A DNA stretch of 62,562 bases from a virus: UHGV virus genome UHGV-0106067; one strand, written 5' to 3'. The notes under the pieces are model-generated. The model ran no database searches. It was not told where the DNA came from and saw only the letters and a program-made list of their open reading frames with translations. The position numbers were made by a program, and so were the translations under genes. Each line of letters begins with the position of its first letter. Within the stretch, counting starts at the first letter, position 1. Positions 34,901-51,889 of this stretch are shown piece after piece.

Positions 34901-37291
34901 GCGACCAGCGGCATTTTCCGGTGCCTGCGCACGTCCTTTCTGGAAACTCTGGCCCTTCACCTCACCGGTTGTGGTAAAACGACCACCACGTCCGGCCTGA
35001 TTTTCATCCGGCGTACGCGCTACTTCTCCTGGTAACGGATATCCCTGTCCGGGATGAATATCGCCGGGAGCGGGAAGGCGTGGACGCTCAGTTAACTCCT
35101 GTGCTGTCGGACCGGCATCACCTTCAGCCATCTGGGAACGCACCAGTTCTTCCGCCGTCGGCGCGTTGCCACGGGCAAGACGGGCCTGCACTTCTGTATC
35201 ATCCCCCGTAAAACCACGGAATCGCGGGTCACGCATGAACGCGGGCTGTTCCATCGGATCAGCATCAGTAATACGCTCTCCGTCAGCCAGAGTGTTAATG
35301 GTCTCCGTTGCCACATCTTCAGAGAACGCAGGATTATCCATTTCAACGGCATACTGATTCTCGCCTTTCTTCACTACGGACGGTTTCAGGCCGGTGGCGC
35401 TGGCATTGCGGAAAACGTCGCTCCCCAGAGCACTTTTTTCATCCGTGAAATAACGGTTGTCCGGACGCACCTTTTCAATGCGTTCTGCTGGTCTGGACGC
35501 ACCACTCCCGTTAATTTCAATACGAACTTCATCCGGATCGCGGAACCGCACCGTCGGGTAAATACTCCCGTCGCCATCATCCGCATTTTCCGGCTGTGGC
35601 TGTGCCTCCGGTCTGGCCTCCTGCTGAGGGCGAAGCACATCACGGATAGCCTGTAACTGCTGCTCTTCAGTATCAGTACGCCCTTCCTTCAGGCTGAGTT
35701 TTCGGTATTCCTCAAGCAGTTCAGGGCGCGGCTTCGCCTTCAGCTCATCCATCACCGCCTGTCGCTTCGCCTGTTCATCCAGTTCATTTAACAGCTGGCT
35801 GGCGGCTTCCCGGCGATGAACGGCAGACGTGTCTCCCTCAGGTGCCATATCCGCATCAGCATACTGTTCCAGAAGTTGCTCGCGATTCATGCCCTGCATG
35901 GATTCGCGATGCTGTGCCACCGGATCAGCCGGTTCGGGTTGCGGGGCTGCTTCACCCTGCTGTACGACTTCAGCCTCACGCATGGCGGTTTCTTCTGCGG
36001 CCTGACGTTTTCCACGATATCCGGCAACCGCACCGAACGGTGCGCCCATCGCTGCACCAAGAGCGGCTCCTTCGATCGTTGCGTCAGCTACCCCCTCCCA
36101 TGGTGATACATCCATTCCGGCAGTCTCACGCAACGTCATATTTTCCTGGTAACGCGAATAGCCGCCCTGCGCCGCATTAATCGTCCCCTGTTCCGTGGCA
36201 TTTCTGACAATGCCGCTTTTAACGGTCTTCGCCGTGCCCCGCATCGCCAGATTAAACAACTGAGCATCGCCCAGTTTTGCCGCCATGGCATTCACAGCCA
36301 GCAATTCAGGATCGGTTGCCAGCTGCGCGCGCACCTCATCGGCAACACGCTCTTTTGCCAGATCCATTTTCTGGCGATCAGTAAGCTGTGCGTGCTGCGG
36401 ATCTGCATCAATTGACAAAAACGTCTGCTGAAATTTCGGGGACTTCGCCAGCTCAGAGTAATCCGCGTTAAGAACAGAGTCTGCTGCTGCCATTGCACTC
36501 TGCCCCTGTGCGCTGGCTGAGGAATGGGTGATCAGGCCTGCCTGGAATAAATCCGGCATTTTTTTATCGACAGCTTCTGCTGCCAGTGCGGTAGCTCTTT
36601 CCGGCTGCATCCCTGCCGCAATGTATTTTTTCTCCAGCCCGGCGGTCAGCACTTTTCGCAGAGTGACTTCACCCAGCTTTTTAGTCACACCGCCTGCAAC
36701 CATATCAGGTACAAGGGCACCAATCAGGTTTACGCCCTTCGCCACCCAGACCGCAGAATCATCATAGCCTTCAGTCATCGGTGTATTCAGCGCCCGCTGC
36801 GCCCCCGGCGACATCTTGCCAGTCAGCCATTCATCCGAGGCTTTAGCGCCGCCACTGACTGCCTTGCCTGTGACCTTCAGACCTTTACCGACAGTATCAG
36901 TAACCGCATTTTTTCCATCAGGCAGAGTGTCGATGACCTCATCCGCCCCCTTGCTGCCACCGACAAAAATATCCTGAACAGTTGCGACTCCCGGCAGCCC
37001 CATACGGCTGAACTCATTTAAAATACGCGCCCCTGTTTTTACCGGGCTCTGAATCATCGCATCACCGAGTCCACGGGCCATTTCCCCTGCCCCCCGGACA
37101 GACTGGGCGACACCTTTCCCCATCGTTGGTAATACATCACTCAGGCTGAACGATGTGCTGTGATCAACAGCGTTCTCCGGGTTGTTGAAAAAATCCTGCC
37201 AGTAATTTTCGCCCGGCTGCTTAATGTTCAGGCTGCTGCGGTTCCGGTTACCCAATTGTGCTTCAGGGCGCTGTTCATCTGAATAAGCCAT
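28940..37291 (-). CDS. Giant (2783 aa) polyvalent virion/ejection protein with two zincin HExxH motifs and hydrophobic segments
   Basis: HEWFH at 33461-33475 and HEIIH at 32660-32674. Gly-zipper/TM-like stretches near both ends. The size is typical of 933W-like podophages. Confidence 0.75.
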   Translation of the reverse strand: MAYSDEQRPEAQLGNRNRSSLNIKQPGENYWQDFFNNPENAVDHSTSFSLSDVLPTMGKGVAQSVRGAGEMARGLGDAMIQSPVKTGARILNEFSRMGLPGVATVQDIFVGGSKGADEVIDTLPDGKNAVTDTVGKGLKVTGKAVSGGAKASDEWLTGKMSPGAQRALNTPMTEGYDDSAVWVAKGVNLIGALVPDMVAGGVTKKLGEVTLRKVLTAGLEKKYIAAGMQPERATALAAEAVDKKMPDLFQAGLITHSSASAQGQSAMAAADSVLNADYSELAKSPKFQQTFLSIDADPQHAQLTDRQKMDLAKERVADEVRAQLATDPELLAVNAMAAKLGDAQLFNLAMRGTAKTVKSGIVRNATEQGTINAAQGGYSRYQENMTLRETAGMDVSPWEGVADATIEGAALGAAMGAPFGAVAGYRGKRQAAEETAMREAEVVQQGEAAPQPEPADPVAQHRESMQGMNREQLLEQYADADMAPEGDTSAVHRREAASQLLNELDEQAKRQAVMDELKAKPRPELLEEYRKLSLKEGRTDTEEQQLQAIRDVLRPQQEARPEAQPQPENADDGDGSIYPTVRFRDPDEVRIEINGSGASRPAERIEKVRPDNRYFTDEKSALGSDVFRNASATGLKPSVVKKGENQYAVEMDNPAFSEDVATETINTLADGERITDADPMEQPAFMRDPRFRGFTGDDTEVQARLARGNAPTAEELVRSQMAEGDAGPTAQELTERPRLPAPGDIHPGQGYPLPGEVARTPDENQAGRGGRFTTTGEVKGQSFQKGRAQAPENAAGRQGEILEGETVRRGLPSPDEQNATAPMREGLPAPESQRGVDMPQPESLPRMVRDSLPELAQQAEARRQTGDNRQTITDVPDTEVPVPVDKPSTHQQARGAKIEDFGEEIKGAAKHRYAQLAEAMGKTLEDGEYATQPLSKLFPKPDYARLEKEGVDSDTLAMMALYRSEIPTRTSRNMQKWISIVKSGREATAGMLEGKIPAAKLADMMDSKPGLRSMSDTWKLLRTLSALQIDKASGYRVRSGVYSFVGGKRYDPPQMMYSLRDSKGRDLFFSESRDELLKKAKAYFDEQGSRERETPATSADDRITFDVYRHKASGDIFIGYGKNRQKLKGGFESARDAHDYVRTHRDELVNQVKALREVSREEQRNATNRDRTGPERRKGDVSPEQFSDAFGFCGVQFGNYVESPRRQADLNRAYDSLHDLADVLNVPTKALSLNGRLGLAFGARGKGKAAAHYEPGEVAINLTKGNGPGALAHEWFHSLDNYFGRYDVSTDGKITSGGDYMTEAQRAGRVFKDGRYVDAEYPVRQEVYDAFKGVMKAINSSDMLRRSERLDGVRSKPYWSTDVEMAARAFERYVQDKARMAGVENDYLVNIRKADDHGQPDTYAYPTNAELDGGIREAFDHLFRTLKTRETDKGVAFYSRKGVTRTPEGNLISDVNRSAEAKGSPVPQVEAVARGVISGIKDSDLKVRVVKSQKEAEALAGESFDGYGKVHAFYRPDKREIVLVADNIPDGRTVREKLRHEIIHHAMEHVVTPAEYQTIIKTVLKTRDSDNATIREAWRKVDASYAKESPEVQAGEFLAHMAEKQPNKFVAAWERVVALVKGVLRRTGLLKPTELNDIRLVRETIRTLGQRVREGYTPREDGAGASSQYSRSGKTDPFKVPEGEGERYRDDLARMMKSLRTTDLTVNIGRTPPVLRHLGAPDLPLVISRDTVRKATNGVKHVVPMDVIERLPELMHDPDAIYRSATERNAVVMLLDAMDKNGDPVVSAVHMKAVRSRLEINKVASVYGTEGGMNKANSLDKAGLTLYRKKKLSRDNLLHRGLQLPKGEHSYRGSVDKILYPEDIRKGPYYSRTSSLTPEETIASRFVRQMQDKFQVLKAVQENIRKTGGKIDDSNNAYMAEELFHGKAENDLNVMKERYVQPLAKLLADYKIAQADLDEYLYARHAPERNAHIAKINPKMPDGGSGMTNAEAAEIMQRVRNSGKQAQYDRLAGIVDDMLARRRELIREAGLEESGVVDAWQNAYRYYVPLKGQDVDGVVSLPRAGKGFTIGGRESRQAMGRASRAQSPSTQAIQDLSESLIRNRKNEVGNAFLKLVQDNPDKDYWQVFTDDKPDTMRAIAERVDPETGETRREVVERPVPMAMMADRYFTTKKDGKTYYIKLHDPRLMRAMKNMGPETSNAVIRTLGKVNRFLATVNTSYNPEFLVSNFIRDVQTAVMNLKAEQGRSDGKLKGLDNLSALAVVKDSRSAMSAVYASLRGKTLTGNGAQWQKVWKEFVEDGGKTGWFNMGDLEGQQKEMDRLVSLAKGGWKGQSIGAWHSFLNLVEDANGAVENALRLSAYKHARDAGLSRQQAASLAKNMTVNFNRRGEQGALMNSLYMFANASIQGTANLVRTLGHLNGDGPLPERLRWKNLNVPQKIALAAVGAGYLLGSLNRSVAGEDDDGVNWYDKVPSHVKERNLVIMKSVFGGKAGEYWSIPLPYGYNVFFLLGHTAEGVAAGDLTASRAAGNVVGGILGAFSPVGSETSETLSGALLKNAAPTILRPFANLAMNENFMGAQIYQENMPFGTPKPDSQLGRRSTPEAYKAFASWLNAFSGGSQYRPGAVDITPESLKFWIDYISGGTGRFISKTTDAAVKSLNGIDIPEQQVPFLGKISGEVMPYADQQKMYDRMTEVAQYHAELKSLTGAERTAFIDENNGKLLMNGLMQDTRKRLKDLRKQRDAIYADSTLSLAQQSAMVKSVERDMKIAVDRFNREYNKKVGVE

Positions 37292-45746: not shown

Positions 45747-45878
45747 TTACTGCATTACCACCGCAGCTGTAGCAACAAGAGCCAGCACACCACCAAGCCA
45801 CACAAACAGCATGAAGCACATTGCGCCTGTGGTGTAACGTTTTCTTCCGATTGTCCGGCATCTCTCTTTATTCATCAT
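45747..45878 (-). CDS. Possible small membrane protein
   Basis: MMNKERCRTIGRKRYTTGAMCFMLFVWLGGVLALVATAAVVMQ: basic N-terminus plus one TM helix. Confidence 0.3.
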   Translation of the reverse strand: MMNKERCRTIGRKRYTTGAMCFMLFVWLGGVLALVATAAVVMQ

Positions 45879-45928
45879 CTGCACCTTCTGAACTATCAGA
45901 AGATTCTGCGCATCCGGCAGGACCACCA

Positions 45929-46399
45929 TCAGGCACCAACAAGCCGTCTGACGCTCACACCATACAGCCCGTTTTTCGCCATTCCCGTATACAGAAAGGT
46001 ATTCACCGTCTTCGTGTGGATACCCATTTCACTGGCAAGGCGACAGGGTCTCGACTGGCGGTAGACATAACCGAACATCACCACCATCTCTGACATCGTC
46101 AGCGGGCGGGCAGCACTGTTATACGTCCAGACGCCGTTGTGTATGGCATCACTTATCTGCTCACCATCACGGAGCAACTCCGCATCCAGTTGCAGAAAAT
46201 GACGCCCCTGGAACATACAGCGCATCAGCCTGCCCAGCAGGCCATCACTAATTATCAGCCAGGATTCGTCAAAGTCCGGGATATAACGGCGGTTCTCCGG
46301 CAGGAAAAACTCCCTCGCCAGTATCACACTGTGTTCCTTCAGTAACGCCTGCAGACCATACTCCAGATAGCGATTCCTGGTAGCCAGAATCACCTTCAT
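45929..46399 (-). CDS. LuxR/FixJ-type HTH regulator-like protein
   Basis: C-terminus LTMSEMVVMFGYV...LASEMGIHTKTVNTFLYTGMAKNGL. SD GGAAGGTG. Confidence 0.5.
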   Translation of the reverse strand: MKVILATRNRYLEYGLQALLKEHSVILAREFFLPENRRYIPDFDESWLIISDGLLGRLMRCMFQGRHFLQLDAELLRDGEQISDAIHNGVWTYNSAARPLTMSEMVVMFGYVYRQSRPCRLASEMGIHTKTVNTFLYTGMAKNGLYGVSVRRLVGA

Positions 46400-46487: not shown

Positions 46488-47762
46488 TTAAAACTCGAAG
46501 TTCACACCAACATTCCAGGAGGCATCGCCATCACTGAATGCCACGCCTGCTTTCGCTGCGGTCTGCTCGTTGAAGCGGTAACCCACACCCACCGCCAGTG
46601 CCTGCTGGTCGCTGTAACCACCAACCGCTGCCGTGGCGTTGAATTTACCCACACTGTACGGCTGGAACAGACCTGTCAGGGCCGCAGACTGTGCTGCTGC
46701 TCGTTTCATTTCCTTATGGTTTTCATTAATCTGGCGCTGCTGGCTGTCCAGACGTGCTGAATGTTGCTGCAGCGTACGGGTATTGGCTGCAATCGCCTTG
46801 CTGTTTTTCTCAATGGATTGCGTGTTACGGGTGACACGGCCATCAATGGCACCAACTGCTGCATCAATACGGTCAGTACGACCAGACAGGGCTACCAGAC
46901 CATCGTTAACAGAAATGGTGTTCTTTGCACCTTCTGCACGGGTCAGGGTGCCGTCAGAACTCACACCAACAGTGGTGCGATCTTTGATGGATTTATCCAG
47001 ATCAACAATAGCATCGCTTACACGCACATTTTTTGGAGCTGTAACATCATGTGTATAGCTGCCATCCTCTTCCTGATAAATGGTTGTATCTGCCTGAATG
47101 GCTGCAACTACATTTTTTACAGACTCTCGCTCCACTGAGCCTGTTTCATCAAGGGTAATGTTACCGTTAGCATCGATAGCAAAAGTTGTGTCTTTATTCA
47201 ACCTATCTATATTGGTAACGATGCGGTTGTATTCCTGCAGAACACCTGGGCCTTGTTTAACAGCAGCAAGCGCGGCATCAGAGTTTCCCCCTGAACGAAC
47301 CGCAGACACATACGCTGGCGCTGTTTCAGATGTAATCTTAGAAGATATATCATCTTTCAAAGCTAATACTTTATCTAAATCATTTTTATTTATTTTTTTC
47401 AAAGACTCTAATTTTAAACTCTCTGAGTAAACAGGAAATGATATTTTATTAGCTATATCCTGTAACTCTTTTTTAAAATCAGGACTATCGACATTATATT
47501 TAAATTTTTTTATCAACGCAGTATACGCATTTTCCATCTCCTTTTTATTATATGACATGACGCTTCCTGTTGCTGTATTAATAGCACCTAAAACCTCTTT
47601 TCCTTGTGCGTCTACTATCTTGGCACCTTCCCCATCCTTGTAAAATTTTACGATGTAATCGCTGCCTTTAACTGGGATATCTAAAGCCATGGCCCCAGAA
47701 CTCACCAGCATCAGTCCGGCAACAGCAGATGAAAGAATAGTCTTTGTAAATTTCTTGCTCAT
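46488..47762 (-). CDS. eib: Trimeric autotransporter adhesin, Eib (immunoglobulin-binding)-like
   Basis: Signal peptide, coiled-coil stalk, YadA-type anchor ...[28 protein letters not shown]...WNVGVNFEF. Confidence 0.7.
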
Positions 47763-48091
47763 GTGGTATACCCTATAAAATTATCTGTATACAAATAAAA
47801 CAGTTCAACATCGGATATATAAAGAAAATCTGATGTCTCGCCGCTCTCATGAGCTTACTCCTGAAGAAATTCCGAATTTTAATATGAAGTTTTTCGGAAT
47901 TTCCTTACTATAACGTCGGTGATATCACGTCCGCGAAGGGATATCCGCATTACGACTGGCCTGCCACTTATTCTGTCTCTTTATTCATCAACAATTTGTA
48001 TACGGTTACATCTTTAATTGTGAAGTTAGTCACAAAAAGAAGAAAGTCCAATAATCAAATTGTGCTTAACTGTTTACATCAGCACAATCTG

Positions 48092-48124
48092 ATGACCATT
48101 GAATGACCATTGAATGACCATTGA
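48092..48124. repeat. 11-bp tandem repeat (ATGACCATTGA)x3 upstream of the eib-like gene
   Basis: Three perfect copies read directly. Confidence 0.95.
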
Positions 48125-48256
48125 AGGACGCACTAAATTATTTTCAGCAATCCCTCAGCCTACGAAAATTCTGTATCCCCTGAATGTTTAATTTACACTC
48201 TTTTTATGCAATTATTCTTTCGACTATAAAAACACCACTATCTCATGTATGACCTT

Positions 48257-48283
48257 GGGGAGCGTGCCGTCTCCCCGTTTTTT
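48257..48283 (+). terminator. Plus-strand intrinsic terminator (module 1)
   Basis: GGGGAG-cgtgccgt-CTCCCC-G-TTTTTT. Confidence 0.7.
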
Positions 48284-48426
48284 CGCTTACAGTTTCATGA
48301 CGACTTTCAGTTTCAGGAATCAGCAGTTACCATGCAATACGAAAATTCTGTATTGCATCCGCGCCCTCATCTCAATATCTTTGTCGCCGGATAAAAATAA
48401 CTATCAACCACAAGTATCATGCTCTC

Positions 48427-48452
48427 GGGGAGCACGCACTCCCCAGTTTTTT
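48427..48452 (+). terminator. Plus-strand intrinsic terminator (module 2)
   Basis: GGGGAG-cacgca-CTCCCC-AG-TTTTTT. Confidence 0.7.
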
Positions 48453-48555
48453 ATCTTTGACAGGGGTGAAGGAGGCCGTTGCATCTCCTTTAATTATCAT
48501 TGCCAGATTATTTCCTCGACCTGAGTATTCTTTATTTAGCCATAGCTTTGTAGCA

Positions 48556-48581
48556 AGGGGCTGGAGCGCCCCTCTTTTTTT
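48556..48581 (+). terminator. Plus-strand intrinsic terminator abutting the 3' end of the minus-strand fibre-assembly gene
   Basis: AGGGGC-tggagc-GCCCCT-C-TTTTTTT. Confidence 0.6.
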
Positions 48582-49159
48582 CACCTGTCAGCCATGCCGA
48601 CCTTATACGCCAGTATAGCTTCCGCATCACCCAGCGCTTCAATCTCTTTTTTCATCGTGCGCTGTCTGACATGAATTTCCAGACCTTTGGTAAACATCGC
48701 CTGCTCTGCAGCAGCACTCAGAGCAATCAGTGTTTCAGCGTCCATCGGTACGTCATTATTGTCCGCATCCGTCCAGAAAAACTGCTCCGGCAGTTTCCCC
48801 GCTTTCGCTGCCGCCACCGACGGCTCAAGACGCATCTGCGTTGACTTCCCGTAGTCCCATTTACGCCCATTGTGCTCAAACGTGTAGTTCGCCGCTTCCA
48901 TCGCATTACGCCAGGCGTTGATCCCGGCGGTTTTGAGTTCTCTGGCTTTTTCCGGGCTGATGGATGGCTGTACATATTCTGCAATTTCACCGGCCTCTCC
49001 TCTCAGACAAGCGGCATAAATATCCCGCCCGTATGCTTCGGTATCGCTGGCTGTTGCAGTGAAAGGAACCGCCTGCTCAATGTGCTCAAACTTCACCATG
49101 CAATTCACAGCAGTGTGATCTTTATCTGCCCATTGCGGATTGCTTATTTTTTTCCACAT
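48581..49159 (-). CDS. Tail-fibre assembly/chaperone-like protein
   Basis: 192 aa directly downstream of the fibre gene. Function is inferred from position and size. Confidence 0.5.
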   Translation of the reverse strand: MWKKISNPQWADKDHTAVNCMVKFEHIEQAVPFTATASDTEAYGRDIYAACLRGEAGEIAEYVQPSISPEKARELKTAGINAWRNAMEAANYTFEHNGRKWDYGKSTQMRLEPSVAAAKAGKLPEQFFWTDADNNDVPMDAETLIALSAAAEQAMFTKGLEIHVRQRTMKKEIEALGDAEAILAYKVGMADR

Positions 49160-49178
49160 TCATGTCATCTCCTGTCTG

Positions 49179-51242
49179 TCAGTATGCGCGCTGGAACAGC
49201 CCGATGCCTTCATTGTCATTTGTCGACGTAATTTCATTACACACCATCCATGAGCCCGGAACTGAGGATAGGTTGCCGTCAATGCCATCGGTGTTAGCTT
49301 TCATATAGTTCCCGCTTGCATCTTTGATTATGGCGCATCGCTTAAGGCGTGAACCCTGTACAGTTTCTCCTGGCTGATAGGTTCTGCCGATGTCGGTTGT
49401 ATACGGGGCTAGTGCGGCAATAATGTATGTTCCGATGCTGTAAATTTCCCCGGGTACCAGCCTTCCGGTTGGCCCTTGTGGTCCCTGTGGTCCGGTTTTA
49501 CCATCCAACCCGGGCAGTCCCATCGGCCCTCGCCCTCCGGCAGGGCCCTGTGGCCCCGTTTTACCCGCAGGACCTGCCGGACCAACCGGCCCCGGAACAC
49601 CCTGTGCCCCCGCTGGTCCCCTTTCACCTCGTGGCCCTGCCGGGCCTGCATCACCTTTGGGACCAGCTGCACCAGCCGGTCCCTGTGGGCCTGCGGGCCC
49701 CACTGCTCCCGCAGGTCCTGTCGCCCCCTGCAGCCCACGGAGGCCCTGCTCACCTTTCTGTCCTGCAGGCCCCTGAGGTCCGGGTTCACCGCGCTCACCT
49801 TTCGGACCTGTGGGACCTGCCGGTCCTTGCTCGCCCCTGTCACCTTTCGGTCCAGGTATGCTTTCTCCCGACGGGCGGGTTGTCGCAACCTCTTCTGCCT
49901 TCTGTTTCGCTGCCCTGGCCTCATCCATTGCCGCCTTCACAGCTTTCGGTGTGGCTGCCTTCGTTTCATCATCACTGTCCGTTGCGCTGCTTAACTGCAC
50001 AATTCCCTTCTGTGCCGTCGTCGCATCTGCCACATTTGCTGCGCTGCCCGCCGGGCCTGGCTCCCCACGAGGTCCCTGAGGTCCAGCTTCGCCTCGTTCA
50101 CCTTTCGGACCTGCCGGACCCGGTTCACCTCTCTCTCCGGCGGGGCCCTGTAATCCTTGCGGACCACGTTCCCCGGGTTCCCCTTTCGGCCCCGCAGGTC
50201 CGGTCTCACCGCGCTCTCCCTTTGCTCCTGCCGGCCCCGGCTCACCTCTCGGACCAGTATCCCCCTTTGGTCCCTGAGGCCCCCCCGGGTCTCCTTTTTC
50301 GCCTCTGGCCCCGGTTTCACCACGCGGCCCCATTGCTCCCTGTGGCCCGGTCGCACCACGTGGGCCAGATGGCCCTGTTGCGCCAGCTGGCCCCTGCACT
50401 CCCTGAGGTCCCCGTTCTCCTGTATCACCTTTCTGGCCCGGTATGCCCTGAGGTCCGCGCTCTCCCTGCTCACCTTTCTCCCCACGCGGACCCGCCGGAC
50501 CTGTTTCACCACGAGGACCAGCATCACCTTTCGGCCCTGTATCGCCTTTAGGTCCTCGTGCATTCTCAGCCATACGTCTGGCTTCTTCAGCACTAACCGT
50601 AGCAGCCTCAGCACGTTTAAGAACGTCTCCGGCGGCTTCCTGAGCCACTCTGGCGGTTTCAGCATGTTGTCTGGCCTCTTTAGCGTCAGCTGCCGCTGCC
50701 TTTTCAGACTCACCTGCCCGGGTCGCCGCCTCTGCAGCCTCACTGGCTTTTTGTGCAGACTCCGTCGCTTTGCTGGTCGCAGCCTTCGCGCTTTCTGATG
50801 CAGTCTTCGCACTGGCAGCAGCGCTTTCCTTCGACTGTGAAGCCTGATTATTTTTCACCGCCGTGTCTTCGTTCAGACGACGAATCGTGGCAAGGTCATC
50901 CGCCACATTGTTCTGTATCTGCCGGAAATCTGTCAGCAGTTCTCCGGGTATGCTCACCTCAACAAGACTGCGGCGTAACAGCATATTGAGCGTCACCGTA
51001 CTTTCAGTCCCCTCAATACGCACACGTCCGTAGACAGCAGTCTTCCCTTTCACCGTCACAGAAACCGCATACTCCCCCGGCTCCAGCGTCATTCCGTAAT
51101 ACCCGCCGTCACGAGTCACTGCTGACGCACTGGTGCCGCTGAGCGCATCCGGTGAAACTGTCAGCGCCGTCAGGGTAATATTTGCGCCTGATATCGCCTC
51201 ACCATCAGGAGATTTCAGCGTCCCCGAAACAACAACACTCAC
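49179..51242 (-). CDS. Tail fibre with N-terminal fibre domain and long collagen-like Gly-X-Y repeats
   Basis: [27 protein letters not shown]... then two Gly-X-Y blocks ([22 protein letters not shown]...). Confidence 0.85.
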
Positions 51243-51889
51243 ATTTCACCTCCGTTAAACACCTTCTTGCGGGCCGACAATGTACTGTCAGCCCCCTGTT
51301 TAATCCCGAGCTGCTCAACAAAACTCTGATAATGTTGTGCTGCCAGTCCTGACTCTGCACCACCGGCAGCATCCTTACTGAATGCGCGGAACAACATCCA
51401 GTCAACCAGCGGGTTAACATAAGCCTCTTCCAGCGGTACAGGCGTGTCATCATCCTGCGTCAGAACATACACCGCCTCCGGAATGCGGCTGACCACAGCA
51501 TCAACACTCACAGCCTCCTCCGGTGCCGGAAACAGCCAGAACACGCGCGGGGCAAGGTCACTGCTGATAAAGCATTCCGGTTTCCCCCTCAGCATGTGCC
51601 AGTCGGGATACTGTGCATCAAGCACCTTACGGGATTGCGGTTTTATAGCACTGCCATCGCTGAGGCATATCACGTCAAGAAGCTGTATTGCGCCATCAGG
51701 CAAAGTCTGACGTGCACCAGGAACACAATTCAGCGTCTCCAGACTTGCGCCTGCATCCGGCCTTGCCAGAATCACCGCCCGCACAGCATCATTGTAATAA
51801 TCACACAGCTCAGCCAGAGGCCAGCGCACCATCATCGGGTCAACCAGTTGCGTGTTCACTCGTCCGATGATTTCAGTAATCGTCGTCAT
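51239..51889 (-). CDS. Head-tail connector/adaptor-like structural protein
   Basis: 216 aa in the structural operon. No motif. Confidence 0.45.

Follow-up and report, generated by a model that had tools for sequence, protein, structure and literature searches.

Plus-strand terminator-like hairpins between a prophage eib adhesin gene and a tail-fibre assembly gene: a possible one-way transcription barrier

The oop RNA of phage lambda is a short antisense transcript that overlaps cII at its 3′ end and stops at an intrinsic terminator. Phage cassette-boundary intrinsic terminators, which act as unidirectional insulators, combine a GC-rich stem of 6–7 bp, a loop of 6–8 nucleotides (nt) and a T6–T7 run on one strand, and are located at gene and cassette ends beside AT-rich cargo. 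The Hfq-binding prophage small RNAs (sRNAs) of pathogenic Escherichia coli (AgvB, AsxR, Esr41, STnc100, DicF and PasA-D) are small and intergenic with a 3′ stem-loop and poly-U, and are lineage-restricted, occurring in multiple copies and variants (PMC4104026; bioRxiv 10.64898/2026.05.13.724894). Features of these systems recur in UHGV virus genome UHGV-0106067, the whole 62,562-nt stretch of which is referred to here as the window. An 818-bp spacer (47763–48580) separates two minus-strand genes, the eib adhesin gene and the tail-fibre assembly gene tfa, and the element studied is the approximately 450 bp on its tfa side. We tentatively read the spacer as an orientation-specific, one-way transcription barrier of a mobile eib cassette. 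The flanking genes and the hairpins concerned, together with a related hairpin beside a 60-residue open reading frame (ORF-60), are as follows.

46488–47762, minus strand: eib adhesin gene (YadA_anchor, E = 1.4e-16)
48581–49159, minus strand: tfa, tail-fibre assembly gene (DUF4376, E = 1.3e-19)
48581–48583, TCA on the plus strand: stop codon of the minus-strand gene tfa
48256–48283, plus strand: terminator 1 (T1), TGGGGAGCGTGCCGTCTCCCCG followed by T6; hairpin at 48256–48277, −12.5 kcal/mol; intact in allele A only
48427–48452, plus strand: terminator 2 (T2), GGGGAGCACGCACTCCCC followed by AGTTTTTT; hairpin at 48427–48444, T6, −11.6 kcal/mol; in all copies
48469–48490 (48467–48492 in the scan listing), plus strand: hairpin H, AAGGAG-loop-CTCCTT; weaker than T1–T3
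48556–48581, plus strand: terminator 3 (T3), AGGGGCTGGAGCGCCCCT followed by CTTTTTTT; hairpin at 48556–48573, T7; abuts the tfa stop codon
45722–45749, plus strand: ORF-60 terminator, GGGGAGCATGTTGCTCCCC followed by CTTTTTTT; same GGGGAGC...CTCCCC family; abuts the minus-strand ORF-60 stop codon

A terminator scan of 47500–49000 returned six sites, all on the plus strand, against 1.1 ± 1.2 in shuffled sequence. Five of the six terminator-like sites lie in the spacer, which has no minus-strand site. The terminator stems consist of 6–7 pairs, five of them G-C, which is adequate stability for an intrinsic terminator, and T-runs lie directly 3′ of the stems only on the plus strand (T6, T6 and T7), the minus-strand followers being AAGGTC, GAGAGC and TTGCTA. 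The last base of T3, at 48581, coincides with the first of the tfa stop codon. The three plus-strand terminators of the original prediction are thus confirmed, with T1 starting at 48256 instead of 48257 and T3 adjoining tfa, as is its statement that the neighbouring genes lie on the minus strand, eib and tfa both doing so. From these features we infer that the hairpins act as terminators, and on the plus strand only. The pattern GGGGAGC-N3–12-CTCCCC has four matches in the window (three sites, one of which is palindromic and counted on both strands) where 0.04 would be expected. The same-family terminator abutting the ORF-60 stop codon has the same orientation, in support of a barrier; its alignment to the module of T2 (module 2, defined below; z = 4.15) covers approximately 55 nt and takes in a TATCAA further upstream. 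ORF-60 itself (45747–45929, minus strand, 60 residues) has a hydrophobic C terminus, and its terminator is also present in several other eib loci and in one locus without the modules (L047).

In the proposed arrangement, the stacked T1, T2, H and T3, with U-tracts on the plus strand alone, would stop only plus-strand transcription. Transcription along the minus strand (sense), coming from the tail-fibre and tfa genes, would pass into eib and the structural genes beyond, and plus-strand (antisense) transcription, the existence of which the model presumes, would be halted on its way from or beyond the AT-rich eib control region before it reached tfa and the tail genes. The eib cassette sits within a co-oriented run of structural genes, and sense transcription across the spacer is probably needed; because such genes lie on both sides of eib, read-through in the sense direction is at least plausible. 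T3 would serve as a generic boundary terminator of the tfa module, whereas T1 and T2 would belong to a small terminator sequence family with its third member at the ORF-60 boundary, and would stem, together with a 16-nt box, from an old tandem duplication whose distal copy (module 2) is the only one to be maintained. Short plus-strand RNAs ending at the terminators would be by-products unless shown otherwise.

The two modules to which T1 and T2 belong have the following parts upstream of their terminators.

48161–48176, strand not assigned: box copy 1 (TACGAAAATTCTGTAT); end point of the conserved upstream segment, beyond which (from 48177) the module 1 alleles diverge
48177–48255, plus strand: module 1 interior, with ATAAAAA at 48226–48232; two alleles that differ at up to approximately 26–28% of positions, recombinants exist
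48338–48353, strand not assigned: box copy 2 (TACGAAAATTCTGTAT), inside the inverted repeat GCAATAC...GTATTGC (48335–48356)
48354–48426, plus strand: module 2 core, with ATAAAAA at 48391–48397; from 48357 on in every copy examined

Box and terminator come in the same order in both modules, at spacings of 177 and 169–171 bp, and T1 and T2 are significantly alike (z = 4.7, 0 of 2,000 shuffles). The whole post-box segment scores z = 6.9, driven by the terminator, and neither the 73–79 nt between box and terminator (z = 1.25) nor the DNA upstream of the box (z = 1.6) is significantly similar between the two modules. The element had been described as diverged direct repeats of 170–180 bp; box, terminator, order and spacing bear this out in part, whereas the module interiors and the DNA before the boxes are not significantly alike. 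The repeated box was correctly recognized, although its exact starts are 48161 and 48338 and not approximately 48163 and 48345, and so were the ATAAAAA elements and the GCAATAC...GTATTGC inverted repeat around the second box. The T3 unit was considered as a third module copy and rejected, having no similarity to module 2 (z = −0.5).

Natural variation was compared in 68 sequences (some contigs fetched twice), which comprise 34 haplotypes of 48125–48581. The segments 48125–48176, 48321–48353 and 48354–48426 are nearly invariant (mean pairwise difference 0.007–0.03), and T2 is somewhat more variable (0.06). The segments 48177–48320 (module 1 interior and T1) and 48477–48581 (H to T3) each exist as two alleles, differing at up to approximately 24–28% of positions and found in all combinations; the spacer forms a mosaic whose segments recombine freely. 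Structurally, T1 is intact in allele A, whereas in allele B its 5′ arm is 2 nt shorter and a good stem is no longer formed. A 116-bp deletion (48241–48356) at an ATC microhomology, present in 13 of the 34 haplotypes including that of the phage P-EibA, removes T1 and box 2 together with 48354–48356 of the module 2 core, and an exact box-to-box deletion of 177 bp, seen in one contig (L126), removes all of module 1. T2, H, T3 and the module 2 core from 48357 on are kept in all 34 haplotypes. That T1 is decayed or deleted in many copies while T2, H and T3 remain in all of them fits redundancy within a stack, and the natural loss of box 2 and T1 in about one-third of copies argues that the two modules are not required. 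The L126 copy (metagenome contig OGGU01003443.1, approximately 1241–1355) has box 1 fused exactly to the sequence that follows box 2, and the 16-nt direct repeats therefore do recombine.

Between the a and b alleles of 48460–48581, 1 of the 24 stem positions of H and T3 differs, compared with 28 of 101 other positions (Fisher one-sided p = 0.0085, with the H stem in this count shifted by one base), a preferential conservation that supports the barrier. The two stems survive an allele divergence of approximately 25% with changed loops and spacers: in the b allele the stem of H is extended by two pairs to 8 bp, with an altered loop and a T-rich tail (AAATTTTTATT), and T3 retains its stem with an altered loop. 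In T2 the stem change G48429T is usually, though not strictly, accompanied by A48445G, which adds a closing C-G pair. Divergence among copies is shallow (0.023 in the module 2 core) and too little for a covariation test.

Loci without the modules point the same way. The comparison drew on 80 loci that encode relatives of the tfa protein, about nine of whose distal spacers were read by eye; many of the 80 have eib-like genes that share only the promoter-proximal 47763–47930, their distal spacers being quite different. A hairpin at the tfa stop codon with its T-run antisense to tfa was seen by eye in five of the approximately nine module-free loci (L048, L072, L077, L061 and L047), in support of the barrier, and the scan confirmed the antisense-facing terminator in L048 and L072. 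Because module-free loci carry such antisense-facing terminators at the tfa stop, T3 is, by its predicted structure and place, a member of a positional class at the tfa boundary and is not peculiar to eib. These comparative data point to orientation-specific terminators at a cassette boundary, a simpler account that the original prediction had left aside, and it is for this reason that the barrier is favoured.

Several observations weigh against it. Among the module-free loci, the tfa-stop hairpin of L059 faces the sense direction and L056 has none. No plus-strand gene lies between the integrase gene and tfa to supply the transcription to be stopped, and the only consensus promoter match, described below, is weak. 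Although a hairpin and a T-run would be enough for a barrier, the 73 nt that precede T2 hardly vary and have persisted through two independent types of deletion, which hints at an additional function. The exact 16-nt box is likewise unexplained by a barrier alone. The box and the invariant 73 nt keep alive both an sRNA function and a protein-binding role of the box. Separate sRNA genes would need promoters; the spacer has the following candidates.

47780–47808, minus strand: best promoter candidate of the whole spacer, TTGAAC-17-GATAAT; 9.9 bits
48027–48055, plus strand: sigma-70 consensus match, TAGTCA-17-AATAAT; weak, 6.4 bits in the position weight matrix (PWM) scan

Both the PWM and the consensus scans address sigma-70, other sigma factors and activator-dependent promoters being outside their coverage. 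On the plus strand of 47763–48582 the PWM scan found no sigma-70 signal above chance (best 8.2 bits; shuffled maxima 9.2 ± 1.4), and the absence of any such signal inside the modules is in keeping with a barrier. Weak sites were found 45–65 nt before the terminators (TTTACA-15-TATTCT at 48192, TTGCAT-17-TATCTT at 48353 and TTGCCA-17-GAGTAT at 48500); the sigma-70-like sites in the modules score 6.0–8.1 bits, within the shuffled range. The match at 48027–48055, the sole plus-strand consensus-scan match near the element, lies upstream of all modules and might supply the plus-strand transcription that the terminators would stop. Directly downstream of it, at 48054–48093, is a 13-nt inverted repeat (ATCAAATTGTGCT and AGCACAATCTGAT, 92% complementary).

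The modules might instead be separate genes for trans-acting sRNAs: module 2, module 1 where it is intact and perhaps the T3 unit would each give a plus-strand transcript of approximately 50–65 nt, A-rich towards its 5′ end, in which a seed (…ACCAC…UAUC…AUG…) stays single-stranded and a U6-tailed terminator follows. Such transcripts would resemble Hfq-binding prophage sRNAs and be directed at host or prophage mRNAs, with the box as an upstream activator site. E. coli prophages are well known to encode intergenic sRNAs that end in terminators (PMC4104026; bioRxiv 10.64898/2026.05.13.724894), and the terminator and U-tract architecture, the position of the weak promoter-like sites before each terminator and the module 2 core (mean pairwise difference 0.023, with segments on either side, where alleles have diverged, reaching 0.10–0.12) would all suit such genes. 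We nevertheless consider this account rather unlikely. The promoter-like scores do not exceed those of shuffled sequence, the module 2 candidate promoter loses its −35 element in the 116-bp deletion class, which makes up about one-third of copies, and T1 is degenerate in allele B. The non-module DNA of 48125–48160 is as invariant as the module 2 core (0.022), and the invariance may therefore just reflect recent spread. Pairing of the seeds to prophage mRNAs is no better than that of shuffled seeds (best −28.5 kcal/mol, against a null best of −26.2 ± 1.4). That best pairing, of the module 2 seed with the ORF-60 start, reached 4 of 1,000 against the single target and was rejected, as it does not go beyond shuffled seeds scanned over the whole prophage; pairing with the eib start region gave nothing notable.

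The Rfam search for which the original prediction had called returned no family match for the modules, even at E ≤ 10: with Rfam 15 there was none at E ≤ 1 over 47000–49500 and only noise (E 2.6–4.1, far below gathering scores) over 48000–48600. AgvB, AsxR, Esr41 and STnc100 are Rfam families (bioRxiv 10.64898/2026.05.13.724894) and are therefore excluded as the identity of the modules. The two or three short sRNAs proposed originally are thus unsupported, there being no above-chance plus-strand promoter in the modules and no Rfam match, with T1 degenerate in allele B and deleted along with box 2 in 13 of the 34 haplotypes, and with module 1 missing from one more. A wider proposal, to which we give little credence, is that the eib cassette carries one or two small RNAs of its own (module 2, and module 1 in allele A), driven through the box by some regulator and moving with the adhesin between lambda-like siphovirus and P22-portal/SU10-adaptor backbones, so as to link adhesin expression to host or prophage control. 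Were the modules sRNA genes, the set of prophage sRNAs in pathogenic E. coli would grow by one or two new members linked to an adhesin.

The region is non-coding DNA. No ORF of at least 30 residues is common to all 34 haplotypes, three of which have none at all, and none of the allele indels (+1, −4, and either +2 or +5 according to the alignment) is a multiple of 3, so that all frames are broken; neither Pfam nor PHROG gave a match at E ≤ 1 for any of five local ORFs. The earlier non-coding reading is upheld by these results, although its claim that the 91-residue 48249–48524 is the sole plus-strand ORF is not, as plus-strand ORFs of 49 and 53 residues exist too, none of them conserved. The 49-residue ORF was rejected as a gene: it is open in alleles A and B, where the indels sum to 3, but it lacks a Shine–Dalgarno sequence, is destroyed in the deletion variants and is absent from three haplotypes. 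A 55-residue minus-strand ORF coupled to the tfa stop by a GTGA overlap was rejected owing to frame-breaking indels in the b allele.

The 16-nt box is identical at all 16 positions in its two copies, and its dyad symmetry is partial (ATAC-N9-GTAT; in copy 2 it reaches CAATAC/GTATTG). With up to three mismatches allowed, the window has 3 matches against 0.35 expected, a number reached in 0 of 100 shuffles; besides the two exact boxes, there is one further match, with three mismatches, within an ORF. Because the copies are identical even though the stretches from box to terminator are not significantly alike, the box is probably a protein-binding site. When it was compared by eye with sites for sigma-28, sigma-54, LexA, CRP, ArgR, IHF, RcsAB and invertases (gix/hix), none fitted well. 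The two boxes, 177 bp apart, could cooperate as operators for a DNA-binding protein that modulates eib, whether a prophage or host regulator or the IbrAB activator system, with the terminators incidental. Identity of the boxes within otherwise dissimilar DNA and their partial symmetry favour this, as does the regulation of eib expression by growth conditions (PMC4352079).

Operators that modulate eib seem improbable, however. The candidate at 47808–47780 is probably the eib promoter; in agreement with this, a pGEM plasmid that carries eibG behind just 168 bp of its upstream region complements a deletion of eibG (PMC13534694). Such a promoter would place the modules upstream of the eib transcript and outside its 5′ untranslated region. 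The boxes lie 350–550 bp upstream of this candidate, box 2 is deleted in about one-third of natural copies and one box is lost in L126, and single-base box variants occur in L007, L132, L019, L168 and L174. Elsewhere in the window the box recurs only as the single three-mismatch match inside an ORF, and no comparable repeated box was found in the paralogous eib-like loci. The suggestion of a regulator-binding array controlling eib is not supported on these grounds: since 168 bp is enough on a plasmid and P-EibA is without box 2, the array is not required for eib expression, although a modulatory role is possible.

Other sequence features lie in and near this control region. A palindrome, TTATCTGTATACAAATAA (47781–47798), overlaps the spacer and −10 element of the eib promoter candidate and looks like an operator; its core, TTTGTATACAAA, is conserved in otherwise different paralogous eib-like loci (L047, L048, L059 and L072). 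A perfect 11-bp inverted repeat (GAAATTCCGAA...TTCGGAATTTC) at 47866–47903, approximately 100–140 bp upstream of the eib start, carries a stem_loop annotation in P-EibA (AF151091); the paralogous loci have analogous inverted repeats (GGATATTCC...GGAAATATC), and this repeat and the 16-nt box have a CGAAAA/TTTTCG motif in common. An 11-bp tandem repeat (ATGACCATTGA; 48092–48129), situated between box 1 and the eib control region, has three copies here and one or two in other eib loci. Each unit amounts to one helical turn, and a change in copy number could alter the phasing of upstream sites.

The spacer was found in 27 of 5,426 complete E. coli genomes, at 70 places that are all chromosomal and always beside YadA-anchor and DUF4376 genes, and in eight phage records including P-EibA. 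The pattern of box plus ATAAAAA occurs in 54 metagenome contigs, mostly labelled human gut; in all GTDB species representatives it had seven matches in unrelated taxa, which were taken as chance. A sensitive BLAST search of the modules against phages and plasmids gave no match beyond the eib phages, and nothing on the eib–tfa spacer was found in the literature. The element is confined to eib prophages, as a narrow cassette, and its presence in approximately 0.5% of complete E. coli genomes limits its general importance.

Such a distribution, with no GTDB species representative, would also suit modules that are functionless, decaying scars of cassette exchange, that is, 3′ boundary pieces of former tfa–eib cargo hitch-hiking with the eib cassette. 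The approximately 55 nt that T1 and T2 have in common with the terminator at the ORF-60 cassette boundary, the freely recombining mosaic with its deletions by ATC microhomology and from box to box, and the visible decay of module 1 are all consistent with scars. Against them stand the preferential conservation of the H and T3 stems between diverged alleles and the retention of T2 and the module 2 core in every haplotype. As H and T3 are selectively conserved and module 2 is universally retained, scarring alone is disfavoured, and we regard it as doubtful. Remnants of ORF-60 coding sequence were sought downstream of both terminators and rejected: there is no coding homology after T1, and that after T2 is borderline (z = 2.5) and not collinear with the terminator alignment.

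The genes around the spacer bear on the mobility of the cassette. Downstream of eib on the minus strand are genes for a tail-tip fibre protein, a Lom-like protein and a 2,783-residue polyvalent protein, and the genes upstream include an SU10-type adaptor (51239–51889) and a P22-type portal (55797–57941). The polyvalent ORF, portal and adaptor mark the phage of the window as non-lambdoid, whereas P-EibA is lambda-like (J, lom and orf-401) and unlike this backbone; the cassette, including the spacer and the 3′ end of tfa, is therefore passed between phages of unrelated types. The 2,783-residue ORF (28940–37291, minus strand) contains LPD38, LPD5, LPD1 and MuF-C domains, as in a large polyvalent protein, and adjoins an integrase gene (27429–28673). 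The tail fibre protein gene (49179–51242, minus strand) encodes collagen triple-helix repeats (Pfam Collagen, E = 1.3e-46) and a phage tail fibre repeat.

Set beside the known systems, the elements of the spacer are previously unannotated but conventional, namely intrinsic terminators and possibly small RNAs in a narrowly distributed cassette. From the Hfq-binding prophage sRNAs the modules differ in having neither an Rfam sequence or structure match nor a recognizable promoter; among the 27 genomes with the spacer by BLAST, no row names E2348/69, Sakai or EDL933 (their presence in the collection was not checked). The likeness to lambda oop is that of a short transcript ending at a terminator that faces the adjacent gene, with the difference that T3 stops exactly at the tfa stop codon, so that a transcript ending there would not reach into the coding sequence of tfa. 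If the spacer is indeed a one-way barrier, it offers a clear natural example of an insulated virulence cassette inside a phage structural operon, where late transcription would continue and antisense transcription out of AT-rich foreign DNA would be cut short; this would not be surprising and would be useful for annotating cargo boundaries in prophages. Compared with other phage cassette-boundary terminators, those described here have no convergent gene to terminate, two of them come with a repeated 16-nt box, and three or four are stacked within 330 bp, facing against all the neighbouring genes.

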